DNA from: Candidatus Zixiibacteriota bacterium
GTDB lineage: Bacteria; Zixibacteria; MSB-5A5; GN15; JAAZOE01
DNA: 64,000 bases
Reading direction: 5' to 3'
Assembly: GCA_043819555.1 (NCBI GenBank)
Contig: JBDREQ010000064.1
Location: 18,026-82,025 of the forward strand
The position numbers and the translations under genes are program-made. Below, piece after piece: positions 10,446 through 35,723 of this stretch (its first letter is position 1; each line of letters opens with the position of its first letter). The notes under the pieces were generated by a model that worked only from the letters and a program-made list of their open reading frames with translations, had not been told where the DNA came from and did no database searches.

Positions 10446-11579
10446 TTATGATTCAATAAGTTCAACATTGGCGCGCGGGACAATCGCGGTTTGACCGTCG
10501 TCAAATTCGACTTCCAAAACGCGAGCCTTTGATTCTGATTCCAAAACCTGGAGCGGCGATGGCAATCCTGAAACCTTACCCAGCATTCCAAAATAAGGGT
10601 GGCGGATAACACGAATCGGAGATCCAATTTCAAGACCCTGCTGTTCATAGGCGGCTGAGTCATCCTTTTCTTTCGGATCACCGCCGAGAGGTACAACTAC
10701 TTCCGGGCGGATTACGCCGGCTCGAATTTGAGTAGCCCCATTAATACATGCCATTTGCCCATTTCTGGATTTAAGCAGATCAAATGTTTTTTGAGCCATG
10801 TTGATATCGCCAAACCCTTCCGTAACAACCAGAGTAATGCCCAAATCCTCAGAGCCGGTAATGGCTACGCCGATATCATATCCCAAAAACTCGCGCAAAT
10901 CCTTATCATCAAAACCGCCGGTGACAACGCCTTTGGCCCCGACTTTTATAGCCTTTCTAATAGCATTAGCAGTTACCCGGGAACCGCCGATGATGATGCA
11001 GTCTTTGCAATCATCGGTAATATATTTTTCCTGCAACTGAGTGTAATTATCCGGGACAACAACTTTAATCATCCCATGGGTCTCGCCGCCGATGCCAAAT
11101 ATACCCTGTATAAACGCTCCCCAGGCCGCCACAGCCACACCCTCTTCGGGGATCACTTCCATAACTTCGCCTACGAGATATGCCGTTACTTCAACCGGAA
11201 TGGGCTCTCCGCGCAGAAGAACCTGACCGGTAATGCTGGATATTGATTCCACTGTACCTTTCAAAGTGGACGCACTTGAAGAGGAAAATATTTTCAATCC
11301 AAAAAGAGGTTTTGTGCGGGCGATAATTTCGCCCTTTTCAACCGCGTCACCCACCTTTTTGAGCATACATCCCTCAATATCCTCGGGTGGCAACCCCAAT
11401 TGGTTGGCGACATTAATAGGTTCGACGTCACCGGGTAAAAATGTCCGGGCAACTACGGTCTCAGGCGAAACTCTGTCGCCCTTTGAAGCGACAACTTCTC
11501 CTTTAAGGGGGAGAATTCTTCTCTTCGTCACAAGCAGCTTTTCGCTGACTTTCAATCCGGGTGTATATGCATGTGCCAT
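10446..11579 (-). CDS. Conserved hypothetical cytoplasmic protein (barrel-sandwich-hybrid-like repeats, KOW-like C-terminus), GlmL-associated
   Basis: 377-aa ORF with RBS; GEVVASKGDRV and KKVGDAVEKGEIIA resemble lipoyl/RnfC-N barrel-sandwich repeats; C-terminal IGSPIRVIRHPYFGMLGKV is KOW-like; no signal peptide or TM. Confidence 0.75.
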   Translation of the reverse strand: MAHAYTPGLKVSEKLLVTKRRILPLKGEVVASKGDRVSPETVVARTFLPGDVEPINVANQLGLPPEDIEGCMLKKVGDAVEKGEIIARTKPLFGLKIFSSSSASTLKGTVESISSITGQVLLRGEPIPVEVTAYLVGEVMEVIPEEGVAVAAWGAFIQGIFGIGGETHGMIKVVVPDNYTQLQEKYITDDCKDCIIIGGSRVTANAIRKAIKVGAKGVVTGGFDDKDLREFLGYDIGVAITGSEDLGITLVVTEGFGDINMAQKTFDLLKSRNGQMACINGATQIRAGVIRPEVVVPLGGDPKEKDDSAAYEQQGLEIGSPIRVIRHPYFGMLGKVSGLPSPLQVLESESKARVLEVEFDDGQTAIVPRANVELIES

Positions 11580-11612: not shown

Positions 11613-12419
11613 CTAATCGGACTTTTCCTTTGATTTTTTCACGCGAGGCGCGATGACAAAATTCCATATCAAGCCAAAAGAAATGATCACTAATACTCCG
11701 GCAAGCATCCAGTTTTTGAATCGCGTAACCGGTTCAGCCGCCTGTTCCTCAGTCGCCTCAGATGAAGATTCGTTCAGGTTTTCCGTATTGCCGACTTCCG
11801 TAAATTTCAGTTCTTCCTGCGCCTGAGCTTCTTTTAAATTATCAAATGATAGTGATGCGATCACGCTGTCAAAAATCGGCTTATTATCTTCAAACGCGGA
11901 ATCCGGACTATAACAATAGAGAGTCACCAAACCGGCGTCATTCAATTTCATATGCATCAGAAGCTTCATCATCGCTTCAGGAGTAAAAGCCATTTCCGAT
12001 ATGACTGTAATTGATTTTTCTTTCAAATTTAACCGAGGCTGTCCGGGCAACAAATCAGACATTTTATCCACTACGCGGCTTTTGTAAATGTCCTTCTTAT
12101 AACTGTCGGAGATATCTTGAAGCAATGAATCCGCCTCGTGCTTGCCCAATTCTCCGGTAGAGTCGAAGGCAATCACGACATAAGCGTCATCCAGATATTG
12201 CGATGATATTGGCGCGAAAACTGCTTCATAATTATATGCATCGCTGGAGGCATCAGAAGGCGAAAATATGGCATCAACAATTCGGTAATCGACTTTTTCC
12301 CAATTTTTCGGATAGCTTATCCAGAAACCGCCTTTCCAATTGACATAGTTTCCTGCCAGAGCGCCAATTGGCAATATAAAAACCGCCAATGCTAAAAAAA
12401 TTATCACCCACTTTTTCAT
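11613..12419 (-). CDS. Exported protein with C-terminal membrane anchor (PsbP/DcrB-like N-terminal motif)
   Basis: Start refined to ATG 12419 (MKKWVIIFLALAVF...ALA signal); GFWISYPKNW motif; C-terminal TM followed by basic tail. Confidence 0.7.
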   Translation of the reverse strand: MKKWVIIFLALAVFILPIGALAGNYVNWKGGFWISYPKNWEKVDYRIVDAIFSPSDASSDAYNYEAVFAPISSQYLDDAYVVIAFDSTGELGKHEADSLLQDISDSYKKDIYKSRVVDKMSDLLPGQPRLNLKEKSITVISEMAFTPEAMMKLLMHMKLNDAGLVTLYCYSPDSAFEDNKPIFDSVIASLSFDNLKEAQAQEELKFTEVGNTENLNESSSEATEEQAAEPVTRFKNWMLAGVLVIISFGLIWNFVIAPRVKKSKEKSD

Positions 12420-12444
12420 AAAAATATATCCTTCATATGATCCC

Positions 12445-14298
12445 TTAATCATTATCCAGGGCCTTTTTGGGATAAATATCAAGTTCTGTCATCCATTTTT
12501 TCAAAGAGCTAATCCTCTGTGAATTATCTTCCGGCAGTACAAATGGATTGCGGCCTCGGCCATCGAGAATAATCCCAACTACGCCGCCTTTGAGTTCTGT
12601 CTCGACTTTTTGTCCGCGTCCTTTGCCGAGATCGAGGTGCTTTAGCGGTTCCAGCGTCGCCTGGGCAGTCATCGGTAATCCGTTTTCGGCGACGCCGAGC
12701 TTGAGCAGCTTAATCTCGCCGAATTCAAGTCTGCCCGAAACAGTTCCGTCAGGCAGATCAATCTTATAACTGAGAATCTCTCCGCCTTTTTTAACTTCTC
12801 CCGAAGGAGCCACACAGGTTCCGAGATGAATCAAACAGTCTTTTTCAAATACTTCGGTAGCCGCCTGAGGATGCAATGTAGAAAGAACGCCCAACTGGGG
12901 CATCATAAAGATGGAATCAACCGCGAGGCGAGTTATGCCTTCCGGCTGAAACGCGTCAATCAGCATCAGGGCCGATTGCTGCCGGCGGGGAGCGTGAGAC
13001 AATACGCCGCCCGAACCGATTAGCATGTCCAGAGTCATCATATTGACAATTGTCGAACCGGAACTATCCTGTTCAAAGGCGTCGGCGATTGTCCTCTGTT
13101 TTTGAACGCCTTTCAAAACCGTCGCGAAACTTTTATGCTGTATAAAGGCCAAGCGAAGAGCTTCCTTCGCGACTCCCTGTTCAAACACTAATTCTTCCAT
13201 TGATTGAGGAATCGTCGTCGGGCGGATCATTTTATTTTTAACTCGGTTGCGCAGATCGCGCTCATCCATTTCAAATGGCACCCAGCGCATGATATTGGGC
13301 AGAGTCGCTTCAGCGAACACATTTGAAATTGAGTAACTCATCCCCAAATTAGCCGATACCGTCCGGTTAAAGACGCCTTCTCCTCCACCGGGACGGAAAA
13401 CGGAAAACACATCAGTCGTAGCGCCGCCGATATCAACTCCAACGGCTTCCATATTTCCCAGATCGGCAATCGTCTTGATAATCAATCCCACCGCCCCCGG
13501 CGTCGGCATGATCGGAGCATCGGTCCATTTCATCAGTTTGGAATATCCCGGAGCCTGCGCCATGACATGTTCCATAAATAAGTTATGAATCTCTTCACGG
13601 GCGGGATAGAGGTTTTCCCGCTCTAAAACCGGTCGGAGATTATCGACAATGCCTAAATCTACTTTTTTATCAAGAGTTTCTTTGACGGCTTTGCGGGCTT
13701 CTATATTACCGGCGAAAATAACCGGTAATTTATATCCCGAACCCAGGCGCGGTTTGGGATCGGCTGCGGCAATTAATTCCGCGATTTCCGCGACGTGCGA
13801 TGTGGTTCCACCGTCGATCCCTCCCGATAATAAAATCATATCGGGACGCAAATGACGAATTCTTTCAATTTGCTGATGAGGACGGCGCTTGTCGTTGGAT
13901 GCTATCACATCCATAACGATTGCTCCCGCCCCAAGAGCGGCGCGCTCGGCCGATTCGGCTGTCATAGAACGAACCACACCGGCAACCATCATTTGCAATC
14001 CGCCGCCGGCCGATGAAGTCGAAATATAAATATCGCATCCCCGGTCCCCGTCTGCGGGCGTGATGATTCTATCGTTTTCATCGAGCAGAGTTTTATTGGT
14101 CAATTCACCGACTTCGGCCACGGCGTTGAGGACCCCCATCGTTACATCCTCAAAAGGCGCTTCAACCGTCGTGGGCGCCTCGCCTCGTGCAATCAATCGA
14201 TACTCGCCGTCTCGTTTTTCTATCAGGATTGCCTTGGTAGTCGTTGAACCGCAATCGGTAGCCAAAATTGTATTAATCTTTTCCAGATTCTCAAGCAT
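12445..14298 (-). CDS. GlmL/MutL-like (glutamate mutase L family) ASKHA-fold ATPase
   Basis: TDCGSTTTK (phosphate-1), TSSAGGGL, LSGGIDGG, IMPTPGAV, VDIGGATTDVFS (phosphate-2), RTVSANLGMSYS, IGSGGVL. Confidence 0.85.
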   Translation of the reverse strand: MLENLEKINTILATDCGSTTTKAILIEKRDGEYRLIARGEAPTTVEAPFEDVTMGVLNAVAEVGELTNKTLLDENDRIITPADGDRGCDIYISTSSAGGGLQMMVAGVVRSMTAESAERAALGAGAIVMDVIASNDKRRPHQQIERIRHLRPDMILLSGGIDGGTTSHVAEIAELIAAADPKPRLGSGYKLPVIFAGNIEARKAVKETLDKKVDLGIVDNLRPVLERENLYPAREEIHNLFMEHVMAQAPGYSKLMKWTDAPIMPTPGAVGLIIKTIADLGNMEAVGVDIGGATTDVFSVFRPGGGEGVFNRTVSANLGMSYSISNVFAEATLPNIMRWVPFEMDERDLRNRVKNKMIRPTTIPQSMEELVFEQGVAKEALRLAFIQHKSFATVLKGVQKQRTIADAFEQDSSGSTIVNMMTLDMLIGSGGVLSHAPRRQQSALMLIDAFQPEGITRLAVDSIFMMPQLGVLSTLHPQAATEVFEKDCLIHLGTCVAPSGEVKKGGEILSYKIDLPDGTVSGRLEFGEIKLLKLGVAENGLPMTAQATLEPLKHLDLGKGRGQKVETELKGGVVGIILDGRGRNPFVLPEDNSQRISSLKKWMTELDIYPKKALDND

Positions 14299-19372: not shown

Positions 19373-20185
19373 ATGGTTATGCGAAAAGGAAAACGCATTA
19401 AGGGATACCTCATTGTGGTATCCCTTTTTAGCCTGATGGTTTTATTCGCCGGATGCGCCACCAAGCAGGATGTTTTGCGGGTTGAGGAAAAGGTCAATCA
19501 GGTTCGCGCCGACCAAAGACTCTTGAAGGCAAAAATTGACGCCATCGATTCACTGATCGCCGACGGCGCCGAGCAAGACAACCGTCTCCGCGCCGATATG
19601 CGTTCGTCTGTTGAAGATTTAAACGAACAGCTAACTCAACTACAAAATCAACTCAACGATCTCAATCAGATGATCTATAATTTCTCTCAGCGCGTCGCTT
19701 CGCAGCCGGCCCAGTCCCAGGTATTCCAGCAAGCGCCGCTGGCAGATGATGCGGCCGCGCAGGCCAGTGATACCACTGAAATTGAAGCGGTTTCATCGGT
19801 AGATTGTACCGGCCTGTGGGATCAGGCTTTCAAGGATATGCGACGCGGCCAATACGACCTGGCCCTTTCCGGATTTTCAGATTATATCAAATTTTGCCCG
19901 AAAGGCAATCTCCTTGATAACAGCCAGTACTGGATTGCTGAATGCTATTATGAGATGGAAATGAATGAGCGGGCTATCGAGGAATATACCAGGCTCATCG
20001 ACGGGTACCCCGAATCTGAAAAGCTATCATCCGCTTATTTCAAAATCGGCCGCTCGTATGAAAAAATGAACAATAACGGAAAGGCTCTCGAGTATTATAT
20101 CATAATCCAGGAGCAGTTCCCCGGCTCGGTTCAGCACGAGCAGGTCAAAGATAAGATTGAGCGTTGGCAAAAAGAGCACAATTAA
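19373..20185 (+). CDS. cpoB: Tol-Pal protein CpoB/YbgF
   Basis: Start refined to ATG 19373; lipobox FAGC, coiled coil, TPR with SQYWIAECYY; directly after pal. Confidence 0.88.
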   Translation: MVMRKGKRIKGYLIVVSLFSLMVLFAGCATKQDVLRVEEKVNQVRADQRLLKAKIDAIDSLIADGAEQDNRLRADMRSSVEDLNEQLTQLQNQLNDLNQMIYNFSQRVASQPAQSQVFQQAPLADDAAAQASDTTEIEAVSSVDCTGLWDQAFKDMRRGQYDLALSGFSDYIKFCPKGNLLDNSQYWIAECYYEMEMNERAIEEYTRLIDGYPESEKLSSAYFKIGRSYEKMNNNGKALEYYIIIQEQFPGSVQHEQVKDKIERWQKEHN

Positions 20186-20787
20186 GCGGCGGCAATTATA
20201 TTGAATTAAGTATAAGAAGACTACCGGCAGAAACTGAGTATTTCTGCCAGGGTTTTTATCAGATTGAAGAAGACGTATTATACGTACCGATATACCCTTC
20301 GGGACGTTTTTATTCTTATTTGGATTCAATCCCGGATAACAATATTCAAAATGCGGATAATAATAAGCAACCGCTTGCAAATCTGGATATAGATCATGAA
20401 GGACGGCTGGTATTTCTGCAAATTAAGACTCCTCGTCGGCAATGGAAGGTAAACAAATCATTGAAGCCTTCTCCGCCGATTGAATTGGCTGATGTAAGAT
20501 TTATAAGTTTCCGCGAAAAAACACAATGCCTTGATATTGAAACCGATCAAAATCATTCACAGGTTCGATTGACATTTTCCGCTAAAAAAATCAAACGCTC
20601 ATTTCGTGCCGCAGACAATTTAATATTTGATCTATCTGAGGATAATTTCCTTGTTGCCATTTGGATTATTTCGATTACCGATGACCGGGCGGCAAAGCTA
20701 ATGTCGGAATGGCGTAAAGCAATGCGAATAAATCAAAAACCCGAAGATACCCAATCGTTTTATAAACGAATTGAGATAAATAAATAA
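20164..20787 (+). CDS. Hypothetical protein with two DUF2283-like repeats
   Basis: YQIEEDVLYV...NLDIDHEGRLVFLQI and DNLIFDLSEDNFLVAIWI; start uncertain. Confidence 0.6.
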   Translation: MAKRAQLSGGNYIELSIRRLPAETEYFCQGFYQIEEDVLYVPIYPSGRFYSYLDSIPDNNIQNADNNKQPLANLDIDHEGRLVFLQIKTPRRQWKVNKSLKPSPPIELADVRFISFREKTQCLDIETDQNHSQVRLTFSAKKIKRSFRAADNLIFDLSEDNFLVAIWIISITDDRAAKLMSEWRKAMRINQKPEDTQSFYKRIEINK

Positions 20788-24030: not shown

Positions 24031-24336
24031 TTACATTGTAAACAGCCGTTCACCGGTAATAATTTTCTCCAGCATCTTGATGGTTTTTTCTACCGGTGAA
24101 TTCATTAAATCACAGGTGTTAAAGGTGTGGCGGGTCGCCTCTCGAGGACAGACAAAGTTGGCCTTGCCACGCCCCCCTCTCTTTTTCTTATGGGTCAGAT
24201 TATATAACCGCTGATACTCCTTGGCCTTCTCCTTATGCATCTGATAATAGTGGCGCTGATACTCCCTGCGGGCTTCAGCCGTTGATAATCTACCCTTACT
24301 TATTCTTGTGGTAGAAGAATCAGTCTTCCGTGCCAT
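24031..24336 (-). CDS. Small basic hypothetical protein (101 aa)
   Basis: GAGGTG RBS, own promoter, internal 14-aa repeat, no overlap with other real genes. Confidence 0.75.
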   Translation of the reverse strand: MARKTDSSTTRISKGRLSTAEARREYQRHYYQMHKEKAKEYQRLYNLTHKKKRGGRGKANFVCPREATRHTFNTCDLMNSPVEKTIKMLEKIITGERLFTM

Positions 24337-24765: not shown

Positions 24766-24797
24766 AAAAAAAACCCCGCTCGATGACGGGGTTTTTT
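24766..24797 (-). terminator. Intrinsic terminator of the triplicated cassette operon
   Basis: A-run-ACCCCG-CTCGATGA-CGGGGT-T-run just after the D3 stop. Confidence 0.75.
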
Positions 24798-24821: not shown

Positions 24822-25607
24822 TCAAGCCGGCGCCTGTGCTGATTTCTTTTGCAGGTGGCGAATGATTTCAAGTATGATTAACAAAACCAAAATCAGGGCA
24901 ATTGCCCAGACAACGGTTGTCATACCTCCTCCCCCTTCGAATCCGGCCGAGACCCAGTCGCGAATTATTTGAATTCTTTGAATGAAAAGCGAGATGCGCG
25001 CCATAACTGTATATCCAAACGATGCGCCAAAACCAATCATTAGAATATATATTCCAAATTTAGCGACACCGCCAAACGTGCCCTTATGAGCGACCGAGAA
25101 AAAGAAGTAGAATAATCCGGTAACGACTCCTAAGATTATTACTACGTCTTCAAAGCCAACCCAAAATCCCTCGGCAAAATGCTGTTTAACATCAAACAGA
25201 ATATTAACCGTATCGGCCAATTGACGGCTGACCCTGTTCTGCATTTCCGTAGGAATAGCTACACCGGTAGCGATACCGATATAAAAGGCAATCGGATAAC
25301 GAGAAATCCAGGCTTTCTTTTTGGAGAAGCGAAACCACATAAGCACTCCAAGAATTCCCGGGAATAAATACCACCATTGTCCTCCCCAGAATTGCCACCA
25401 GGGCTGTTCCGGCGTCATCCAGACTTTGTCAAAGAGAGTCGGGATTAAACTGGTATAGACCAGAATCATCGAAAAGTAACCGGCTGATACGCCGACAAAT
25501 AAACTCTCGGAAAATTTATAAAACGGATTGTCTTTATACAGAAATGAAAACGTACACAGGGTGAGACAAACACCGAGAGTCGTCCAAAGAAAAGTTGCCC
25601 AATCCAT
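24822..25607 (-). CDS. Cassette subunit D, copy 3: multi-pass membrane protein
   Basis: Start refined to ATG 25607 (TGATG overlap with C3); motifs SFLYKDN.FYK..E, YFFFS..HKG.FG and FGASFGYTVM.R shared with D1 and D2. Confidence 0.85.
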   Translation of the reverse strand: MDWATFLWTTLGVCLTLCTFSFLYKDNPFYKFSESLFVGVSAGYFSMILVYTSLIPTLFDKVWMTPEQPWWQFWGGQWWYLFPGILGVLMWFRFSKKKAWISRYPIAFYIGIATGVAIPTEMQNRVSRQLADTVNILFDVKQHFAEGFWVGFEDVVIILGVVTGLFYFFFSVAHKGTFGGVAKFGIYILMIGFGASFGYTVMARISLFIQRIQIIRDWVSAGFEGGGGMTTVVWAIALILVLLIILEIIRHLQKKSAQAPA

Positions 25608-26470
25608 CAGTGCGTCCCTCCTCTCCGCCTGGAAATAAAGAAACCTATATTTCCAATCAAAATAAAGATTATGATTGTCATATGGGTCCAAACCTGAACT
25701 CTCATGGCCTCCATCGCTGGACCGGGCTTTGCCCCCGGTAATTTTTTACGGAGCAATGTTTCGTATTCAGCGGCACCGAGCATTCCACCCATAAGTCCGA
25801 ATAATTGGCCAGAGCGAAGGTATGGATAATAATCGGCTGCGGATACGCCGGTTAGTCCAGCGGCCAGAAGAGCGTTATATCTGCCGTTGGCGTAAGAAAG
25901 CCAATAATCGATTCCGCTTGTCCCCGTGATTAAAATAATACCTTCGACATTATTGTAATTAACAATGCCGTTCATCATTGGTATGCTGTCGGTCAGCGTA
26001 TTATAATAATCACTGGGGAAGGATAACCTGTAATTCTGCCCCATACTCAGGATGACAATTCCCGGATATGGTTTGTATCCGAGAAACACGACGTCCTGAC
26101 CATATGTAAGTTCACGTCCGTATTTGGTTCTCACCGAATCCATAACATCAAGCATTGCTGCTTCAGCCATCCCCGGACCGTTTGGAGATAACGCGGTAAT
26201 TATTAGCTTAACCCCTTTTGCCATGGCCTGCTCCATGATAGCATAAGTCATCGGATGCAACTCAGCCATTGAACCGGGATCATAGTCCACTGCGAAATGG
26301 ATATACTGGCCTTCCTCAAGATTTTCAACGAAATCATAAATCGAACGAACTTCCGGATTGACACGGAGAGGCGATTCGAATTCAATCAGAACAGTAATAA
26401 TAACGACTGCGGCAAGGATCAGGTATATCCATCTTCTATCGAGTCCTGCTATTTTTTCAAAAAAATTCAT
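25607..26470 (-). CDS. Cassette subunit C, copy 3: membrane protein with soluble domain between TMs
   Basis: DYDP...EL.PM and YPY...GQL.GLMGG..GAAEYE shared with C1 and C2; GGAGG RBS. Confidence 0.87.
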   Translation of the reverse strand: MNFFEKIAGLDRRWIYLILAAVVIITVLIEFESPLRVNPEVRSIYDFVENLEEGQYIHFAVDYDPGSMAELHPMTYAIMEQAMAKGVKLIITALSPNGPGMAEAAMLDVMDSVRTKYGRELTYGQDVVFLGYKPYPGIVILSMGQNYRLSFPSDYYNTLTDSIPMMNGIVNYNNVEGIILITGTSGIDYWLSYANGRYNALLAAGLTGVSAADYYPYLRSGQLFGLMGGMLGAAEYETLLRKKLPGAKPGPAMEAMRVQVWTHMTIIIFILIGNIGFFISRRRGGTH

Positions 26471-26483
26471 ATCTCATCCTCCC

Positions 26484-27101
26484 TCAATCGCTTCCCATAT
26501 AGGTTCGTTCAATACCAAGGATAACCTTGAGAGCAGTTCCCACCATACCCAGGCCGATTCCGATAACGATCGCTCGTTTGGCGGCCATATTGGGCACGTT
26601 TAGAATCCAAGCGGCCAGATCACCGATCGGTTCGCCCAAAAATCCCAGAAATGGATTAAATCTCAACATTATAATTATTGCGGCAAGAAGTAAAACTGTT
26701 GCCAGAAGAGAGTGTGCCCTGAATGCCCGGAATGCCGCCGAGGCGATAAAAAATGCCAATAGCGAAAACATCGTCGCGTGAAGGGGCATTATTATATACA
26801 GGAAGAAACTACGGAACATATATGATTCCAATCCTCCAAATAGGGCAAAGATGGTCATACTAATTAAGCCGGCAAGAACAACAATCGCGTATTGCCAGTT
26901 TTCCGCTTTTCGTTTTATTTTATTGGCTGAAACTCTGATCAGCGACCATATCCCCAGAGCCAGCGCAAAAATACCGATAATAATTGTCCATTCCATCACA
27001 AATTCATAAACGAATTCCGAGCTGCTGTGAGGAATAAAAAATTGTACCGCCATAAACAGGCCGGTAACAAAGACAATCATTAGAGGAATTTCTCTTTTCA
27101 T
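26484..27101 (-). CDS. Cassette subunit B, copy 3: multi-pass membrane protein
   Basis: MKREIP, TMFSLLAFFIASAAFRAFRA, RAI.IG.GLG, ILGIERTYMG shared with B1 and B2. Confidence 0.87.
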   Translation of the reverse strand: MKREIPLMIVFVTGLFMAVQFFIPHSSSEFVYEFVMEWTIIIGIFALALGIWSLIRVSANKIKRKAENWQYAIVVLAGLISMTIFALFGGLESYMFRSFFLYIIMPLHATMFSLLAFFIASAAFRAFRAHSLLATVLLLAAIIIMLRFNPFLGFLGEPIGDLAAWILNVPNMAAKRAIVIGIGLGMVGTALKVILGIERTYMGSD

Positions 27102-27114
27102 AATTTAATCCTCC

Positions 27115-28326
27115 CTAATTACCGACCCGAAAAAGGTTCATAAAGCCGTCCCAATTAAAAATAGCCGCAACGACTCCAAGTAAAATACTAATTATAACTA
27201 GTGCTTTTCCGTAGTCCTGACCTTTTAAAGAACCGAGTAAAACCGGTTCGCGACCGAGATATGCCGAAGCTGCATAGAGTTCTTCCCCGATCAGGGTATA
27301 ATCGCAAGCCACAACGAAGAAAGGAATCTGAGTAACCTCATCAGTACCGGAAATCTGAATCGATCCAGTGGCTGATCCGGTTTCTGCCAGGATAAGCGAT
27401 TCGGCGTAAAATTTACCCAAATAAAAATTCGTCGCCGGTTTTTCTCGAACCATGATTCCATTAACACCGCCAACATATGCGAACTGCTGATTGGTAACAA
27501 AGAAAATATCATCCTCATTGTAAGCGTCCGGACGTCCGGCATCATAGTAAGCGGTCTTGACAGTTTCCTGGGCGACCGTCATAACGATCGGATCATAACA
27601 GGGAACAATTAGCGAAGTCTGATATTCGGCGACTTTTTTGGCGACGCGGCTGAGGATAGTAAACGATGCGATAGTCGCGACGTCCGCGGCGGTACCCAAT
27701 CCCAGAACGTACAAAATCGGTTTTCCCATTTCCGTGGCCCGACCAATTGCTTCGTCAACAGCGTCAATTCCCGCCAGCGGGCGAACATATAATTCCGCAC
27801 CAGCCCGAGCTCTCTGGATAAAATACAGAGTAAAGATAGTAAACAGGATTACTGCGGCCGCAACTGGAGTTTTTCCCCAGTTGTAATACTGCCCCACAGC
27901 ACGTACCGGCCCAAATGCTTCCGATTCAGTATTGCCATTTTTCTGAAGGGCAACTATTTTATACCAGAAGTCTTTTTCTCTTGGGAAGTAATCAGCATTA
28001 TCAGATTCCTTAACGCCGCTATCCCTTTCCGAAGTATTCCCGCGAGCAACATCTTTTCGTTCCGCAAAAGGTTCATCCGGTGATTCCGCTCGCAAAATGC
28101 GATAACCGATGAAATCTAAATTTTCATCAACATCATCGGCCGATAACTCCCATTCCAGCGATATTGAATGACCGTTATCATTGGGAGTATCAACTGCATT
28201 TACGTTTGTGGGCGGCGCCGGCAGCGCAGATTCAGCGACACTATCGGGGACTGCTTCATCTTGAGCCCATCCGGCAACGGGAATAACCAGAAGTACCATG
28301 ATAAACAGTAAAAATTTGTTTTTCAT
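27115..28326 (-). CDS. Cassette subunit A, copy 3: signal peptide + FN3 + TM + DUF6754-like domain + TM
   Basis: Start refined to ATG 28326 after GGAG; GRATEMG, REKPA, AESLILAETG, PFFVVACDYTLIGEEL, LGSLKGQD shared with A1 and A2. Confidence 0.87.
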   Translation of the reverse strand: MKNKFLLFIMVLLVIPVAGWAQDEAVPDSVAESALPAPPTNVNAVDTPNDNGHSISLEWELSADDVDENLDFIGYRILRAESPDEPFAERKDVARGNTSERDSGVKESDNADYFPREKDFWYKIVALQKNGNTESEAFGPVRAVGQYYNWGKTPVAAAVILFTIFTLYFIQRARAGAELYVRPLAGIDAVDEAIGRATEMGKPILYVLGLGTAADVATIASFTILSRVAKKVAEYQTSLIVPCYDPIVMTVAQETVKTAYYDAGRPDAYNEDDIFFVTNQQFAYVGGVNGIMVREKPATNFYLGKFYAESLILAETGSATGSIQISGTDEVTQIPFFVVACDYTLIGEELYAASAYLGREPVLLGSLKGQDYGKALVIISILLGVVAAIFNWDGFMNLFRVGN

Positions 28327-28365
28327 AATGACTCCACTCATCATCTATTATATTTATTTTGTATT

Positions 28366-29178
28366 CTATTGAATCAGTCCCAGCCAATCATCCAACAAGA
28401 ATGTCAAACGTCCGACCAGAAGCGATATTCGTCCCATCACTGTGTATCCGAATGAAGCCCCAAAAGTAATCATCAGAATCCAAATGCCAAAACGCGAGCT
28501 TACACCAAAAGCTCCCTTATGCTCCTTGCTGAAAAAGAAATATATTATTCCGCAAAATACGCCCGTGAAAACTACAAGGTTGCTTAGCATTCCGACCAAT
28601 TGACCGGACGCCGCAAGAGACATATTTGAGAAAAAATGTCCAAAGCCTTGCCAATCGACTAATAAAGGCATAAACGTAGATGAAATCTGCGAAATAAAAT
28701 CTGAGCGCAAGAATCGCGGCAAATTCAAACCGGCCGTGGTTCCGACAATAAATGCCAAAGCCCATCTCGATATCCAGCCGCCTTTGGGCGACAGTCGCAT
28801 CAACAGGATTATTCCTAGCGCCGGAGGAATTAAATAATGCCATTCGAATCCGGCAAACGGCACATCAAACCAGTTACTTAAAGTTTCCGATACGCGGGGG
28901 AATAGATTGCCAACCAATGTCGTCCAAAAACCGAGACACATCCAGTAAGCTGCGGAAACACCAACATACAGATGCTCGGCGAACTTGTAAAAGGTATTAT
29001 CCTTATATAAGAAAGACAACACTGCCAAGGTTAAAAATGCCGCGAATGTTACCCAGAAGGCTGACGCAAATGAATCGAATGCAGAGGCGCTTTCAGGCGA
29101 GCCCAACATTTTAGCCCAAATGCTGAATAAAAACAATACCGCCACAACCGCAACAACGATAACTGGTCCCTTACGCAT
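28366..29178 (-). CDS. Cassette subunit D, copy 2
   Basis: SFLYKDNTFYKFAE, YFFFSKEHKG, FGASFGYTVMGR; extra N-terminal TM. Confidence 0.87.
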   Translation of the reverse strand: MRKGPVIVVAVVAVLFLFSIWAKMLGSPESASAFDSFASAFWVTFAAFLTLAVLSFLYKDNTFYKFAEHLYVGVSAAYWMCLGFWTTLVGNLFPRVSETLSNWFDVPFAGFEWHYLIPPALGIILLMRLSPKGGWISRWALAFIVGTTAGLNLPRFLRSDFISQISSTFMPLLVDWQGFGHFFSNMSLAASGQLVGMLSNLVVFTGVFCGIIYFFFSKEHKGAFGVSSRFGIWILMITFGASFGYTVMGRISLLVGRLTFLLDDWLGLIQ

Positions 29179-30088
29179 CGATATTTTTCCTTCTGCTCCG
29201 GAAGTAAGAAATATTCCCGATTACGATAAAAGCCATCACGACAATATGCGCCAGCGTTTGCGGTCCCATCATTCTCAGGGCGGGCGCTTCGGTATCCTTA
29301 AATTGAGGATATCTCTCCATTAATTTGGATTCATATTCAGCGGCACCCTTAACGCCGCCCAAAAGGCCAACTACCTGCCTGGGATAATAAGGGTATATCT
29401 GCGGAGCCACGACAGCCGCCAAACCCGCCGCAATATCAACATTCCCCGGATCACCGATGAATTGTATCCATTCTTTTGGTCCTGGAAATCCGCCTCCAAT
29501 CGCAAGTATCAAATCCATATCCGTAGCCGAATTGACATTTTTAAAAATCGGCAATTCGGATAATTCAGTATTATTATCATCGGTCGGGTACATTTTCTGG
29601 AAATCGGTAACAATGACATTCAATACTCCAACACCGCCAGCCTTAAATCCCAGTGATGTAAAATCTACGCCATAAACCGCGTCGGGAAAATCAGTTTTCA
29701 AAACTTCTTCAATACTTTCGGTCATAAGCGCGTGGCCGGTAGCCCAAAGAGTCATAAAATACATTTTGTGCCCTTTTGACATGCAATGCCGGACAAAAGC
29801 ATTTGCCATCGGGCCCACTTCAGGCTTCATCGCTGGATCAAAATCAAATGATATTAAAATTTTTGAACCGGGCGGCATGCTATCGATCTTTTCAAATACG
29901 GCCCTGACAATGGGTGTTGGTGTCTCTTTAAACTTAATATTGAAAACTATTGCGAAGGCGACGGATAAAAATATAAACAGGAATATGATGCGGCGATCTA
30001 TATCTCGGCCCTTCAGAGAATAAATCAGGATGACCAATAGACCAATCAGTACTCCGACGACGGATAGAATTGAGCCGATATTAGTCAT
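29171..30088 (-). CDS. Cassette subunit C, copy 2
   Basis: SFDFDPAMKPEVGPMA, YPYYP.QVVGLLGGVKGAAEYE; ATG 30088 overlaps the B2 end. Confidence 0.87.
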   Translation of the reverse strand: MTNIGSILSVVGVLIGLLVILIYSLKGRDIDRRIIFLFIFLSVAFAIVFNIKFKETPTPIVRAVFEKIDSMPPGSKILISFDFDPAMKPEVGPMANAFVRHCMSKGHKMYFMTLWATGHALMTESIEEVLKTDFPDAVYGVDFTSLGFKAGGVGVLNVIVTDFQKMYPTDDNNTELSELPIFKNVNSATDMDLILAIGGGFPGPKEWIQFIGDPGNVDIAAGLAAVVAPQIYPYYPRQVVGLLGGVKGAAEYESKLMERYPQFKDTEAPALRMMGPQTLAHIVVMAFIVIGNISYFRSRRKNIDA

Positions 30089-30755
30089 TATCACTCCCCA
30101 GATAAGTTCGTTCCATGCCTAATATCAGCCTGAGGGACATCGATACTACGCCTAAACCGACACCGATTAGAATCGCCCTTTGCCCCGCCAAATTTGGACC
30201 GTTCATAATCCAAACGGCCAAATTTGGAATTTGGAGAACGGAAAATGATTCGGGAATCCAGCCGGTTACGGCCATACCCAACGGTGTCCTGCCCAATAAA
30301 ATAATAAATGCCGCAATAAGGAGTATTGTGGCCTCTCGATTTTTGGCGCGAAACGCCCTGTACGACGCTGAGGCAACAAAGAACGCCAATAGAGCGTACA
30401 TTGTCGAAGATAACGGCGCGATAATATTATCGAAGATTACTTTTAATGCGGTTCCTTCGGCAATAACCGAAGCCGCGATGTTTTCACTGCCGACTTTTAG
30501 CATGCCCAATATCAGAGTCAGCAAAAACCCGGTGATGGTAACGATTGAAAATCCCCAATCGGGTTTCTTGCGATATACTTTGGCGAAATGTATGCGGACC
30601 AGGTTTCCTCCGCCGAGGAAAAACGCGAATACCGCGATAATATCAAAAAACAGCGAGAAATCTTCACCCAACGTTTGAGCGGTCGGGAAAAAAACCGAGA
30701 GGATCAGAACAACTCCTACCACTGATGTTATGACAATCGGTATAATGCGTTTCAT
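30081..30755 (-). CDS. Cassette subunit B, copy 2
   Basis: STMYALLAFFVASASYRAFRA, AGQRAILIG, ILGMERTYLG. Confidence 0.87.
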   Translation of the reverse strand: MKRIIPIVITSVVGVVLILSVFFPTAQTLGEDFSLFFDIIAVFAFFLGGGNLVRIHFAKVYRKKPDWGFSIVTITGFLLTLILGMLKVGSENIAASVIAEGTALKVIFDNIIAPLSSTMYALLAFFVASASYRAFRAKNREATILLIAAFIILLGRTPLGMAVTGWIPESFSVLQIPNLAVWIMNGPNLAGQRAILIGVGLGVVSMSLRLILGMERTYLGSDND

Positions 30756-30773
30756 TTTCTAATACGATCCTCG

Positions 30774-31988
30774 CTAATTAGTTGCGAATATAGCGTTCAA
30801 TATATCCAGGAGCCATTGCATTGATTCACTGCCCCAGGCATTAGCGATTGTTGCGGCCATCGTGCCCAGTAAGATGGCGCACATTGCCATAATCTTTCCG
30901 ATATCCTGCCCTTTTAATGATCCCAGCTGTTTGGGATCGCCCGATAGATAAGCCGACGCTGCAAATAATTCTTCACCAATTAAAGTGTAATCGCAGGCGG
31001 CCACAAAAAACGGCAACTGACCTGGGCGAGCCGTACCGGCGATTTGAATCGCCCCGATACTATTACCGGTCTCGGCCAGAATCAGGGACTCCGCGAAAAA
31101 AGCGCCCAAATACAGACAGGTCGCCGGCTTTTCGCGCACCATGATTCCATTCACAGCCGCTACAAATCCAAACTGCTCATCGGTGATATACTGAACCATA
31201 TCGTCGCTGTATCCATCAGGGCGTCCGGCCGACATATATGCTTCTTTTATTGTTTCTCGGGCGGAAGTCATTACCAATGAGCGCGAGACAGGCATCCTTA
31301 TTTTACTATCATAGTCGGCAATAACTCGGGCAACTCGCCCCAAAATAGTTATCCCCGCAATTGTTTGAACATCGTCCATATCCTGAATACCGGCTATAAA
31401 TAAAATCGGGCGTCCCATTTCGGTTGCGCGGCCAACCGCCTCTTCAATCGCTTCCAAACCCGCGATTTTTCTAATAAAAAATTTGCGCCCGCCCTTTACA
31501 GACAATATAAAGCCTATGACCGAACCGCAAACGATAAAGGCCAGAATCAGAATATTCAATTGACCAAAATTAAAAAACTCCCATGTTGCCGCTGCGGGCC
31601 GTGATGGTTCCGAAATAGATTCACCGGCCGAATTATACGCCGCGACTTTATACTGATAAGGGATATCGTTTTCTAACTCCTGGTCACTATAAGTAGTCTG
31701 GCCAATTATTAAATCGGTAATGTGTTCAAAATCGTTGTCCGACTGTGAACGATATAGTTTGTATCCGAGAATATTATCGGGATCGTCAGGGGATTTTTCC
31801 CAGGTCACGATTAATATTCCACCGGCGTCATATACCGCGTTTTGGGCAGTTACATTAGTCGCCGGCAGAGGCAGAGAAACAACCAAAGAATCGGCCAATT
31901 CATCAATTGGAGTTACTTCCTCGGCGAAAACCGCCAATGAAGATATGAGACAAAACGTAAGTGCCGGCGCTAAGAATATCTTATTCAT
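30774..31988 (-). CDS. Cassette subunit A, copy 2
   Basis: ATG 31988 (TAATG overlap with D1); FN3 (W...GYKLYRS...YQYKVAAYN); GRATEMGRP...ACDYTLIGEELFAASAYL. Confidence 0.87.
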   Translation of the reverse strand: MNKIFLAPALTFCLISSLAVFAEEVTPIDELADSLVVSLPLPATNVTAQNAVYDAGGILIVTWEKSPDDPDNILGYKLYRSQSDNDFEHITDLIIGQTTYSDQELENDIPYQYKVAAYNSAGESISEPSRPAAATWEFFNFGQLNILILAFIVCGSVIGFILSVKGGRKFFIRKIAGLEAIEEAVGRATEMGRPILFIAGIQDMDDVQTIAGITILGRVARVIADYDSKIRMPVSRSLVMTSARETIKEAYMSAGRPDGYSDDMVQYITDEQFGFVAAVNGIMVREKPATCLYLGAFFAESLILAETGNSIGAIQIAGTARPGQLPFFVAACDYTLIGEELFAASAYLSGDPKQLGSLKGQDIGKIMAMCAILLGTMAATIANAWGSESMQWLLDILNAIFATN

Positions 31989-32617
31989 TACGGTAATAAT
32001 CCGAGCCATTGATCAAAAAGAAAATCAAGTCTTCCAAGCATAAGCGACATACGGCTCATTACCGTATATCCGAATGAAGCTCCAAAGGTGGCCATCAAAA
32101 ACCAAATGCCGACCTTTGCGGTCGCTCCAAAAAGCCCTTTATGTTCTTTACTGAAGAAGAAATAAACAAGGCCAGAACAGACTCCAACAATAATAATCAA
32201 GTTGTTTATAAAGAGACTGGCTCCGCCCCCAAAAAGAGGCACAATTGTTGCCGAAACCTGTTGCATGGCATTAGAGACAAAGTACATCATCATATATAAA
32301 CCGGCCGTCGCGCCGACTATGAAAGCAAGCGGCCATCGCGCTATCCAGCCAATCTTATCAAAAAGGCGGGCCAGCATAAGAACTCCCAAAATAAAACCGA
32401 ACCATGGATAAATTAAGGGATCTGTGGCAAAAACTGTTTGTTCCAGAAATTTACTGTACATCATGTCCCAAAAATAGACGACAAACCAGTAACCGGCCGA
32501 AGCGCCGACAAAGATCGCCTCACTTATCTTGTAGAACACATTGTCTTTATATAAGAAAGAGATAATGCCCAAAGTCAAAAGAGCAGCTACCCAAATGCCA
32601 AATACTTCCCAGCTCAT
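31988..32617 (-). CDS. Cassette subunit D, copy 1
   Basis: SFLYKDNVFYKISE, YFFFSKEHKG, FGASFGYTVMSR; ATGA overlap with C1. Confidence 0.87.
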   Translation of the reverse strand: MSWEVFGIWVAALLTLGIISFLYKDNVFYKISEAIFVGASAGYWFVVYFWDMMYSKFLEQTVFATDPLIYPWFGFILGVLMLARLFDKIGWIARWPLAFIVGATAGLYMMMYFVSNAMQQVSATIVPLFGGGASLFINNLIIIVGVCSGLVYFFFSKEHKGLFGATAKVGIWFLMATFGASFGYTVMSRMSLMLGRLDFLFDQWLGLLP

Positions 32618-33609
32618 GACTTTTTCTCCTTCTTTTTCTTATCCCGAAGATAGGCGACATTACCAATTATTATAAAACCGATCACTACGATATGCGCGAA
32701 CGATTGTGATAATAAAAACGTGGTTGCCTTGCCCATATATTCAGTCAGCAATTCAAATTCAGCCGCGCCTGACATGCCTCCCATTAATCCGATTAATTGC
32801 CCCGAATTGACATAAGGATAAGCCATTGGAGCCTGAACCGCGGTATTCCCGGCTCCCATTTTTAGATTATATCTATCAACGGCCAATTGAACCCATTCAA
32901 CGGTTCCCGGCTTACCGGCAGAAAGATTTATCGAATAATCTATATTTGTAAAATTCGAAACGTTGCGCACCAATGGGATCGAATCATAAATTCGTCCATT
33001 CATATCGCGCGGGAATGTTGCCCGAATCGATTCGCCCATGCGCAGGATTACGAATTCATTCCCTGATTGAAAACCAAGATTGCAATAATCAACCCCATCA
33101 ACCTTCTGCGTCCGCCATTCAGGATTTTCCACAAAAGCCGCCTCAAGCGCAAGCTGCGCCTGCTGCGGACCCATGGGCCACAAACCCATAATAATTAAAT
33201 TCAAATCATGCTCGAAGGCGTATTTGATTATGCATTCCGCCATTGGTTGTAATTCTGGCGCGGACGGGGGATCATAATCAAAAGAAACCAATATGGTCGA
33301 ACCCGACTGCAGTTCAACCAATCCATCATAGACGCCTCGAACTTCAGCTGAGATTTGAATGGGAAGGGTGAATTGCATGAAAAATGGCAGGAGCAGCGAA
33401 ATGCCAATCAATAAAAATACCATCCGACGCTTAACATATTTCCCTTGCAACGTCCTGACAAAAATAATAACGAAAACCAGAAACATCAGGATGATGATGA
33501 CCGTCGAAACCGTAGTCGAAAACCGAAGCGGTCCCTTCATAAAGTAACAAACAAGAAAAAATATGGCGATTAACACCGTTGCAATAATTTCTTTCATCCT
33601 GATAGTCAT
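32614..33609 (-). CDS. Cassette subunit C, copy 1
   Basis: SFDYDPPSAPELQPMA, YPYVNSGQLIGLMGGMSGAAEFE; three N-terminal TMs; TGATG overlap with B1. Confidence 0.87.
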   Translation of the reverse strand: MTIRMKEIIATVLIAIFFLVCYFMKGPLRFSTTVSTVIIILMFLVFVIIFVRTLQGKYVKRRMVFLLIGISLLLPFFMQFTLPIQISAEVRGVYDGLVELQSGSTILVSFDYDPPSAPELQPMAECIIKYAFEHDLNLIIMGLWPMGPQQAQLALEAAFVENPEWRTQKVDGVDYCNLGFQSGNEFVILRMGESIRATFPRDMNGRIYDSIPLVRNVSNFTNIDYSINLSAGKPGTVEWVQLAVDRYNLKMGAGNTAVQAPMAYPYVNSGQLIGLMGGMSGAAEFELLTEYMGKATTFLLSQSFAHIVVIGFIIIGNVAYLRDKKKKEKKS

Positions 33610-34256
33610 CAATCACCCCCCAGATACGATCGTTCAAGCCCAATAATAATTCGCAGAGAGTTGGAAACCAATCCGAGGGCGATACCCATCATAATCGCCC
33701 GCTGTCCGGCAGTATTAAGAACATTCATTATCCAGTTAGCCCATTGAGACATTTGATATTTGTAAGGAAGCCAGGAGGTAATAAGATCCCCTACCGGAAC
33801 CCGTCCAAGCATTACAAAAAACGCAGCCAAAAGTAATATGGTCGCCTCAAAATTGCGAGCCCTGAAGGCTCGATAAGAAGCTGAGGCTACAAAAAACGCC
33901 AGCAGAGCAAACATAGTCGATGACAACGAACTATAGACATTGATATAAAGCCAGTCAAATGCCGTGCCAGGGTTTCGAAATTCTATCCCGCCAGCAAATC
34001 CGGCAATAGCAACGATTAAAAACGATATTATAATTATAACGGCATATGGCCAATCGGGACGTTTCCTGAAAATTTTTATGCTGGAAATTTTAATCAGATT
34101 CAACGCGCCCAGCCAGATTGCGAAAGCGGCCACAATTAAAAACCAATCGGTAAACCATTTCTCAAATTCATAAAATGGCCAATGCGGTATGAAATAGGAT
34201 ATAACATACGCAACACCGACTACAAAGGTTATTATCAGGGGTATTTCTCGTCTCAT
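33609..34256 (-). CDS. Cassette subunit B, copy 1
   Basis: MRREIP, STMFALLAFFVASASYRAFRA, AGQRAIMMG, IIGLERSYLG. Confidence 0.87.
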   Translation of the reverse strand: MRREIPLIITFVVGVAYVISYFIPHWPFYEFEKWFTDWFLIVAAFAIWLGALNLIKISSIKIFRKRPDWPYAVIIIISFLIVAIAGFAGGIEFRNPGTAFDWLYINVYSSLSSTMFALLAFFVASASYRAFRARNFEATILLLAAFFVMLGRVPVGDLITSWLPYKYQMSQWANWIMNVLNTAGQRAIMMGIALGLVSNSLRIIIGLERSYLGGD

Positions 34257-34283
34257 CAAAAATCCCTTATATTTTCTATTTCG

Positions 34284-35543
34284 TTAATGGGCGGCAAACC
34301 ACTCCGAGATATTCCAATCCGGGTTAAGCGCCAGTAAGATTACACCAATTATAATCGCTGTCAGACAAAGCACTTTGCCTACGTCCTGCCCCTTAAGCGA
34401 TCCCAAGAGTTTTGGTTCGCCTGTCAAATATGCCGACGCCGCAAAAAGTTCCTCGCCAATTAAAGTGTAGTCGCAGGCCGCGACAAAGAACGGCAATTGT
34501 GCCGGCATGGCCGTGCCCGCTATTTGAATGGCGCCAATGCTGTTACCAGTTTCAGCCATGATTAGTGATTCAGCGAAGAAGGTACCGATCAGAAAAACTG
34601 TCGCCGGTTTTTCACGCACAAATAATCCGTCAATTGCTGCAGCATATCCGAATTGATCATCAGTAAGATATCTTACCTGATCTTCAATAAAAGAATCCGG
34701 CCGACCGGCTTTGCTGTATGCTTCTTTGACGACTTCTTTGGCCGTGACCATAACCATAGAACGGCAAACCGGTACATCTATTCGGGTATCGTTTTCGGCG
34801 GCAATCGTCGCAACCCGACCCAAAATTGACATACTGGCAAGGGTTTGAACATCATCCATATCATGAATGCCCGGAACATAATATATTGAACGCCCCATTT
34901 CCGTGGCACGTCCCACCGCATTCTCCACTTCTTCAATACCGGCAATTTTCCGGATATAAAATTTCTTCCCGCTTTTGGCCGCAAAGATAAAATAAATAAT
35001 TGAGGATGACAGCAGGATCGTACCGATAAAAATTACAAAGCGACTCATATTAAACCATTGAGAGACAGATTTCACAGGTCCAATCACGGCAGAACTACTC
35101 GATGTCGACCATAAAACATTCCCGCCCGTTTTGACAAAATTCACAGTAATGATTTTATAATAGTATTCCGTATCGGTAGGCGCCTGAAAATCAGTAAACG
35201 TAGTATGCCCTTGCGGGGTACTGCCCAGTTCCGTGAATTCTCCTTCCGGCGATGTACTGCGTAATATCTTATATTCCATTACATTGCCGCCTTCATAGTC
35301 GTCTGGCGATCTTTCCCAGTTGATTACAATGGCATCACCCTTATCATTTGCATTGTCAAAGGCGTTAATATCAAAGGCAGGCTGCGGGGTTAGTTCCTCC
35401 AAAAACGACGAATCATAAACCTGTTGGGCTAGAGTATCTGTATTTGATTCAACCGGTTCGGATTGAGCTATAGCTTTTGGTGAGGATAGTACTAATGAAA
35501 ATAGAACGGCATAAAAAGAAAAAACACTAAGTCGTTTAAGCAT
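34284..35543 (-). CDS. Cassette subunit A, copy 1
   Basis: Signal peptide, FN3-like domain, TM, GRATEMG...ACDYTLIGEELFAASAYL...GSLKGQD, C-terminal TM. Confidence 0.87.
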   Translation of the reverse strand: MLKRLSVFSFYAVLFSLVLSSPKAIAQSEPVESNTDTLAQQVYDSSFLEELTPQPAFDINAFDNANDKGDAIVINWERSPDDYEGGNVMEYKILRSTSPEGEFTELGSTPQGHTTFTDFQAPTDTEYYYKIITVNFVKTGGNVLWSTSSSSAVIGPVKSVSQWFNMSRFVIFIGTILLSSSIIYFIFAAKSGKKFYIRKIAGIEEVENAVGRATEMGRSIYYVPGIHDMDDVQTLASMSILGRVATIAAENDTRIDVPVCRSMVMVTAKEVVKEAYSKAGRPDSFIEDQVRYLTDDQFGYAAAIDGLFVREKPATVFLIGTFFAESLIMAETGNSIGAIQIAGTAMPAQLPFFVAACDYTLIGEELFAASAYLTGEPKLLGSLKGQDVGKVLCLTAIIIGVILLALNPDWNISEWFAAH

Positions 35544-35694: not shown

Positions 35695-35723
35695 AATGTA
35701 CACCCGACTCAAATTCAAGTCAA
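35695..35723 (-). promoter_or_regulatory. Sigma70-type promoter of the cassette operon
   Basis: TTGACT-N17-TACATT, ~150 nt upstream of the A1 start. Confidence 0.65.

Follow-up and report, generated by a model that had tools for sequence, protein, structure and literature searches.

A four-gene membrane cassette repeated three times in a Candidatus Zixiibacteriota genome and its association with a GlmL/MutL-like ATPase

What kind of membrane system is encoded by four genes that follow one another in the same order three times, and what might power it, are the questions raised by positions 24822–35543 of the window, i.e. the whole 64,000-nucleotide stretch analysed here (Candidatus Zixiibacteriota bacterium, assembly GCA_043819555.1, contig JBDREQ010000064.1, positions 18,026 to 82,025). 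This region is filled by 12 adjoining minus-strand open reading frames (ORFs) without internal stops, in the order A-B-C-D three times, as stated in the original prediction, which was made from the sequence without database searches. All-against-all BLASTP sorted the products into four clean families, with identities between copies of 44–47% (A), 38–48% (B), 30–37% (C) and 39–46% (D); within-family expected values ran from 1e-18 or better to 1e-131, and the top cross-family match had a value of 0.003. All copies are intact, the motifs previously quoted occur in all three, and the GC content of the array (0.42–0.46) is similar to that of the window.

In other lineages, the commonest neighbours of the cassette are a PF13941 protein of 600–620 amino acids (aa), here called G, a 375-aa protein, here called E, and two small genes, frequently in the order small-small-G-E-A-B-C-D. 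The window also encodes G (12445–14298, minus strand; 617 aa), a long GlmL/MutL-like protein resembling ATPases of the actin fold (ASKHA), and E (10446–11579, minus strand; 377 aa, soluble), both 10.5 kb downstream of the cassettes, beyond PPDK-like and tol-pal genes. G is 78% identical to a PF13941 protein adjoining a cassette, and its motifs DCGSTTTKA (residue 15), DIGGATTD (289) and GSGGVLSH (428), corresponding to phosphate-1, phosphate-2 and adenosine, are kept in 71, 74 and 63 of 74 homologues, respectively. It has the ASKHA family and the phosphate motifs in common with GlmL/MutL and Or-4 (PF13941, NF040745, NF040744, TIGR01319), but is about 150 residues longer, is paired or fused with E, is tied to membrane cassettes rather than to a mutase, and scores below all three NCBIfam cut-offs for GlmL/Or-4 (226 against 475, 216 against 600 and 170 against 204 bits). 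A PDB sequence search with G gave no useful match. E has a hybrid-motif N-terminus (biotin/lipoyl and NqrA, E 0.1–0.6), a weak RraA-like middle (E 0.1–0.9) and a KOW C-terminus (SPT5, E 3e-4), and NQRA_N and RnfC_N were over the cut-off in a G-E fusion protein. No Lys or His is found among the E positions conserved at 90%, a finding that speaks against a role as lipoyl or phospho-His carrier.

Genomes that have the cassette generally have this pair as well. DUF6754, the family of A, was found in all 41 close relatives and in all 121 genomes of the phylum (2–6 matches each), and in none of 14 control genomes. E is present in 119 of the 121 as one full-length copy (62–92% identity), a single E thus standing against 2–6 A genes per genome. 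Among 50 genomes not labelled Zixibacteria, E and G were each found in 49, full-length G being 64–80% identical; several of these, which have the triple array, are probably Zixibacteria themselves, and four of the E matches are partial or to a fusion paralogue. DUF6754 also occurs in 41 of 264 genomes of a further phylum. The 301 planctomycete genomes, 89 of which have it, comprise 84 with DUF6754 and E, 5 with DUF6754 only, 3 with E only (one at E 3e-4) and 209 with neither; since these genomes are kin and not independent, we attach no P value to the counts. In named-genome loci B-C-D comes after A in 100 of 119 cases (17 others run into the end of the locus); the figures are 155 of 165 for phylum loci (8 truncated likewise) and 33 of 44 for planctomycete loci, so that co-occurrence of the four families, proposed earlier as a check, extends across phyla. 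The fetched sequence takes in G and E in 24 of the 73 named-genome loci, G in 30 and E in 32 of 60 phylum loci, and G in 22 and E in 26 of 40 planctomycete loci. In eight planctomycete loci A stands apart; B, C and D each occur once elsewhere in seven of these genomes, in some at three or four places, indicating that the genes are retained as a set even when the operon breaks. The eighth genome (L226, G444) keeps A and E, B and C were not found in it, and D is a 35-residue remnant; either the system is decaying there or the assembly has a gap. Glutamate mutase E (PF06368), in contrast, was over the cut-off in only 7 of the 121 phylum genomes and was not found in this one (97% complete). PF09043, used as a check for lysine/ornithine aminomutase, matched 0 of 121 genomes, but the control genomes likewise lacked a match, and ornithine aminomutase was not searched separately.

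Only A and G have catalogue entries, neither with a function for this setting. A1 (34284–35543; 419 aa), A2 (30774–31988; 404 aa from the TAATG-coupled ATG) and A3 (27115–28344; 403–409 aa), on the minus strand like all genes of the array, belong fully to Pfam DUF6754 (PF20539), with 398, 402 and 400 bits against a gathering cut-off of 27 over model positions 3–257, as the original prediction had suggested. The family has no described function, its members are labelled hypothetical or FN3-domain proteins in databases, and B, C, D and E are uncatalogued. A1 has a signal peptide, an FN3-like head, a transmembrane (TM) helix, the DUF6754 alpha/beta domain, predicted to be cytoplasmic, and a second TM helix. 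FN3, expected earlier in every A, was detected by Pfam only in A2 (E 4e-7); A1 and A3 align with that region. In an AlphaFold2 model of A1 residues 157–419 (predicted local distance difference test, pLDDT, 93.9), the core is predicted to run from a TM helix and a helix through six strands alternating with helices to a helix and a TM helix, and the invariant glycines come after strands 1, 4, 5 and 6. The top fold match of the model was Sir2 (Z 12.1, root mean square deviation (rmsd) 3.4, 142 residues aligned); ACDS epsilon 3cf4_G (Z 10.2, rmsd 3.0, 137 aligned) and MTH777 1kjn (Z 9.9) aligned end to end, and transhydrogenase domain III (Z 9.9, rmsd 3.1, 136 aligned, 15% identity) scored level with further alpha/beta folds. 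What looked like an A-SppA fusion in L041 is an artefact of a masked gap.

C1 (32614–33609; 331 aa from ATG) consists of two extra N-terminal TMs followed by a TM, an alpha/beta domain predicted to be periplasmic, and a TM; C2 (29171–30094; 305–307 aa, 31% identity with C1) has one extra N-terminal TM, and C3 (25607–26470; 287 aa) shares 30–37% identity with C1 and C2. The AlphaFold2 model of the C1 core (pLDDT 95.9) has an element order identical to that of the A core and aligned end to end with 3cf4_G (Z 9.0, rmsd 3.3, 149 aligned) and 1kjn (Z 9.8–9.9); in a wide search, the top-50 fold lists of A and C had 16 entries in common. We therefore predict from the models that A and C share one Sir2/ACDS-epsilon-like fold, presumably by common ancestry. 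The scores are middling, near the usual range for alpha/beta folds, and the architecture is a common one; RCK folds reached Z 7.5–9.9 with both models, level with unrelated folds. Sir2, ACDS epsilon and transhydrogenase domain III we take to have the DHS-like NAD/FAD-binding fold. A and C align with such proteins end to end, yet at 6–15% identity and without sequence homology, and in A and C the fold would be slung between two TM helices, twice per cassette and on predicted opposite sides. Homology with transhydrogenase found no support: hhalign comparison with 30 PntB sequences stayed within shuffled controls and no PNTB Pfam match was found. Foldseek gave no clear match (best E 2e-3 for A and 9e-4 for C), PDB sequence searches detected no relative of A, C or D at E 1–3, and in the protein atlas A had no usable match and C matched only unnamed clusters. 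No known membrane complex was among the fold matches, which does not show the A/C fold to be new.

The remaining two subunits, B and D, are predicted to be multi-TM proteins. B1 (33609–34256; 215 aa from ATG) has about 6 TMs with both ends predicted inside, and B2 (30081–30755; 224 aa) and B3 (26484–27101; 205 aa) share with it 48% and 38–41% identity, the latter range including B2. D1 (31988–32617; 209 aa), without a family match, also has about 6 TMs, with the N-terminus predicted outside; D2 (28366–29178; 270 aa, 46% identity with D1) has one extra N-terminal TM, and D3 (24822–25607; 261 aa from the TGATG-coupled ATG, 39–42% identity with D1 and D2) an extra C-terminal TM. Conserved Lys/Arg residues come after the first TM of A and flank the TMs of C on the side away from its domain, and their placement predicts a cytoplasmic A domain and a periplasmic C domain. 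Natural variants agree with this topology: an FG-GAP propeller is inserted between TM3 and TM4 of B, long inserts lie between TM4 and TM5 of D, and C1, C2 and D2 have their extra N-terminal TMs. Conservation between paralogues is highest for A (51–62%, with 61 positions at 90%) and lowest for C (31–38%, 25 positions). In addition to conserved glycine motifs, the predicted TMs hold conserved polar residues (alignment numbering: A Q230/D231/K234, B S125/R186, C Q259/H263/N274, D E32/T184), and no Cys is found among the B or D positions conserved at 90%, nor any redox motif. Big periplasmic additions come and go on single subunits, e.g. the FG-GAP propeller in B, a PQQ propeller or RHS repeats on A, and inserts of 240–380 residues in D (L052:14719-16494, L059:15571-17349, L090:8309-10771, L091:4182-6020, P0297-P0349).

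None of B, C and D was over the cut-off of a Pfam or NCBIfam family; the only Pfam match of B1, TMD0_ABC, was sub-threshold (20.2 bits against 27), and the single PDB sequence match of B had an E of 0.2. No channel, TrkH pore, permease, EcfT or S-component match over the cut-off was obtained for B or D, no DctM, DctQ, TctA or MFS match at E 0.1 for any of the 12 proteins (Pfam, NCBIfam), and no ABC-type ATPase among the 12 genes or their recurring neighbours, the linked ATPase being that of PF13941. The earlier statement that ABC, TRAP, MFS and ECF motifs are lacking thus agrees with the Pfam and NCBIfam results, and these searches and those of PDB sequences returned no characterised complex. 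As the gene set fits no tested transporter or secretion family, it is classed here as new in make-up, with a putative function.

Fusions and co-variation favour a physical complex of these subunits. G and E are fused in P0130, P0216 and L136-L141. Ten C-D fusions were found, of which six (P0272, P0293, P0295, P0296, P0344 and P0350) have a linker TM in agreement with the predicted topology; P0295 and P0296 are from the planctomycetes Calycomorphotria hydatis and Stratiformator vulcanicus. The other four (P0289, P0316, P0336 and P0342) were set aside because they lack a linker TM or look frameshifted; P0289, if real, conflicts with D starting outside. Co-variation was computed over 827 scored columns of 313 paired cassettes (340 before removal of near-copies; effective number 203). 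Top within-chain pairs are plausible strand-helix neighbours, and the strongest coupling overall is inter-chain, B74-D30 (z 15.7), with B78-D34 (z 8.8) one helical turn on, i.e. a parallel helix ladder. On the tree, B74-D30 changed jointly 24 times (9.7 expected) and B78-D34 14 times (4.9 expected), ranking 68 and 196 among 194,786 inter-chain pairs, with A223-B199 at 82. A contact between B and D is thus predicted. Under the predicted topology, 11 of the 14 inter-chain pairs passing both filters lie at matching membrane depth against a background of 45% (nominal P 0.011, seven thresholds having been tried on pairs that are not independent). With C flipped the count is 5 of 14, but with A flipped it is still 10 of 14 (background 58%), so that this test does not fix the side of A. 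In complex prediction of B1+C1+D1 with the A1 core the control scored equally high, and the result was used neither for nor against binding. The four-subunit complex first proposed is favoured by the fusions and the co-variation, but the unit goes with a single GlmL-like ATPase, G, and its partner E as well.

The copies are not recent tandem duplicates. The genome carries four cassettes rather than the three variants first counted, the fourth being on contig C66 (L001:8157-11340), without an FN3 head and upstream of a nucleotidyltransferase, followed by genes read from sequence as metK and ahcY. The trees of the four subunits, made for 135 cassettes after 13 partial or duplicate loci had been dropped, correlate at r 0.84–0.92. 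For 116 of these cassettes, every subunit has its nearest counterpart in one and the same cassette among this genome's four, and the remaining 19 belong to lineages that those four clades do not include. A FastTree of 86 of the 313 joined cassettes (midpoint root, no approximately unbiased (AU) test) places positions 1, 2 and 3 and the fourth cassette each on one side of a branch at 100, a unity that is partly circular because the tree groups were cut by identity. Array position matches clade throughout triple arrays, and the cassettes at position 2 branch with single ones from planctomycetes and acidobacteria rather than with those at position 1 or 3. Judged from these trees, the copies either predate the radiation of the phylum or were gathered by transfer. 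The view of whole cassettes as old, selected paralogues is thus upheld, although the tandem copies are not each other's closest relatives. A cassette of the C66 type occurs in that setting in at least 10 relatives, with A doubled (A-A-B-C-D) in some (L013, L015, L029).

The explanation that we favour, while holding it to fall somewhat short of an even chance, is that one shared actin-fold ATPase drives several membrane modules as ATP-driven importers of likely different specificity. The strong conservation of A and the weak conservation of C, together with a single G-E pair for several cassettes, point to A as the docking site that all modules share and to C as an outward-facing variable selector, and the conserved polar residues and glycine motifs in the TMs suit a translocation path; together these features favour an importer with a shared motor. 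B and D, in opposite orientation, would pack together as the membrane core, flanked by the alpha/beta fold that A would hold on the cytoplasmic and C on the periplasmic side. The variable periplasmic C domain, aided by the variable heads on A, B or D, may capture the substrate; the G-E pair would grip the nearly invariant cytoplasmic A domain, and ATP-dependent binding and release by G, as in other actin-fold chaperones, would switch or ratchet the B/D path. Our best guess for the substrate would be peptides or amino-acid-derived nutrients, on weak evidence from gene context. In neighbour-cluster counts that leave out loci L241-L248, peptidase genes are near the module in five loci and glycine cleavage genes in three; a TonB-dependent receptor and ExbBD-TonB follow D in three loci, ExbBD-TonB occurs in four and ExbB-ExbD in four planctomycete loci, and TolQR lies beside G-E in relatives of this genome; by lineage, ExbB/ExbD(-TonB) or TolQR is near the module in four. 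A more specific proposal, to which we give a little less weight, is a new prokaryotic primary transporter class run by an actin/Hsp70-fold ATPase. The four proteins would form an inverted unit bearing one type of alpha/beta domain on either side of the membrane, and one ATPase-partner pair would serve four to six interchangeable, specificity-bearing modules, possibly as a chaperone-like ratchet pulling peptides inward.

Several observations weigh against the importer model. Docking of G to A, coupling to ATP, transport itself, its direction and its substrate are all things that we infer. B and D match nothing by sequence, and A-C and B-D profile comparisons, whole or in parts, remained within shuffled controls; the C-terminal A-C alignment had the expected register with a score of 7.6 against a control maximum of 11.8. 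Re-paired controls in the co-variation analysis reach z 5.2–7.0 but also lower the whole tail, so that only the top pair, B74-D30, is clear of noise, and the second-ranked inter-chain pair, A62-C223 (z 9.2), which would place A and C on the same side, was rejected on the tree test, with 5 joint changes where 3.5 were expected. In this genome G-E forms a transcription unit of its own, and in many relatives it is divergent from the cassettes. The context is weak, because neighbours vary by lineage and ExbBD genes are common. In passages of PMC4682846, MutL/GlmL proper is described as a chaperone in the reactivation of glutamate mutase, a soluble B12 enzyme, and not as a transport motor. Finally, the nucleotide-binding-domain fold neighbours of A, which come from models, would fit a gated or regulatory device equally well.

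In group II ECF and shared-ATPase ABC importers, one energising module serves several membrane modules. The proposed likeness lies in a conserved cytoplasmic docking part and a variable substrate side, and the copy ratio of ATPase to modules fits; here, however, the ATPase is of the actin fold and not of the ABC type, and no EcfT, S-component, permease or binding-protein match was found. Rnf and Nqr pair two oppositely oriented 6-TM subunits and add a soluble one that has a barrel-sandwich hybrid domain, features that the predicted B/D pair and E resemble, but B and D lack the conserved Cys that serve as iron-site ligands, no Fe-S or flavin subunit was matched, and an ATPase is present instead.

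Should the G-E pair instead push a polymer, lipid-linked unit or protein out through B/D, with the periplasmic heads as anchors or guides, the system would serve envelope export or assembly. Its presence in 121 of 121 phylum genomes, the 64–80% identity of G across phyla, the nearby Tol/Exb genes, the large FN3, PQQ-propeller, FG-GAP and other periplasmic additions, and the position of the fourth cassette upstream of a nucleotidyltransferase would all suit such a role. We consider it unlikely, however, since the distribution is patchy elsewhere (89 of 301 planctomycete and 41 of 264 other-phylum genomes), the neighbour clusters have no recurring glycosyltransferase, outer-membrane pore or secreted-substrate gene, and several variants per ATPase suit uptake modules better.

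Less probable still is transmembrane signalling, in which the periplasmic domains would sense, B/D relay to A, and G-E act as an output switch rather than a motor. Freely exchanged extracytoplasmic domains and the KOW domain at the end of E are consistent with it, and several sensors per transducer would also yield many cassettes per ATPase, but the module has no recurring kinase, cyclase or regulator among its neighbours, and 16 TM helices with conserved polar residues exceed what a relay usually needs. We regard as improbable, slightly more so than signalling, a channel or secondary carrier gated by a nucleotide or other ligand, with A binding a dinucleotide in the manner of transhydrogenase domain III or RCK and G-E resetting or regulating it. 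The best folds of A (Sir2, Z 12.1; ACDS epsilon, 10.2; transhydrogenase domain III, 9.9), RCK domains at Z 8–10 for A and C and the invariant glycines of A speak for such a device; against it, such Z values are close to what alpha/beta folds commonly give, profile comparison with domain III and the membrane part of transhydrogenase shows no similarity, B and D lack conserved Cys or a redox motif, and the tight G-E linkage would be left to explain. That G would be a conventional reactivating factor for a B12 mutase, with the cassettes as unrelated neighbours, as its PF13941 membership, its scores against the GlmL and Or-4 models and the unrelated genes in the 10.5 kb between might suggest, is very improbable and largely refuted by the profile, the scores being far below the cut-offs, glutamate mutase E occurring in 7 of 121 genomes against 119 for the E protein, and DUF6754 and E co-occurring nearly perfectly in planctomycetes.

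The ATP-driven transport known in bacteria relies on ABC, P-type, rotary and secretion ATPases, and a membrane machine with an actin-fold ATPase as its motor would, if true, add a class. The system is strongly conserved (G 64–80% identical across phyla) and present in 121 of 121 phylum genomes and 89 of 301 planctomycetes, yet no paper on DUF6754, PF13941, an ASKHA membrane complex or an actin-like-ATPase transporter was found in a search that most subscription papers and all supplements lay outside. Listings from broader literature searches likewise named nothing on it, and passages of PMC3903129, on this phylum, hold nothing relevant to the cassette system. It accounts for many genes annotated 'glutamate mutase L' in organisms without the mutase, and the C-D fusions of two planctomycete species offer an experimental route. 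New here are the shared A/C fold, the B-D co-variation and the retention of genes in split operons.

Six of the 11 junctions in the array overlap, in keeping with the many overlaps noted originally, and the other five have gaps of 13–27 nucleotides (nt). With start codons corrected to the overlapping ATG for this analysis, the overlaps are TGATG at B1-C1 and C3-D3, ATGA at C1-D1, TAATG at D1-A2, and 8 nt at B2-C2 and C2-D2. A terminator-like hairpin, identified by pattern match (24768–24797; 11 pairs, T runs on both strands), lies 3' of D3, where a terminator had been placed. The single promoter proposed upstream of the array found no support: a 9-of-12 match at 35723–35695 is among 41 such matches, where shuffled sequence would give 27, and so is not distinguishable from background.

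Just past the hairpin, 24031–24336 (minus strand) encodes a basic 101-aa protein of no known family, relatives of which follow the array in 37 loci of the phylum, usually ahead of the PPDK-like gene. Past the tol-pal genes, a 207-aa ORF (20164–20787, plus strand) has a weak DUF2283 match (E 5e-4, below the cut-off). Between G and E lies X (11613–12482, minus strand), an exported, C-terminally anchored protein with a PsbP-like match below the cut-off (E 0.0065); its cluster, found in 23 loci, none of them planctomycete, is lineage-restricted and of unsure membership. The two small genes that precede G-E-A-B-C-D in several phyla lie here on a separate contig, C34 (L142:2228-3183); they belong to no known family, one product having two TM helices and the other being helical. 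Stand-alone fusions of a GlmL-like ATPase with an E-like part (920–980 aa; L136:6788-9568, L137-L141) occur away from cassettes in 6 of the 121 phylum genomes and in several other phyla, a second use of the ATPase module. In several genomes of the phylum (L125-L135 and others), PntB-like frames of 517–531 residues, against the usual 463–470, were matched in two pieces.

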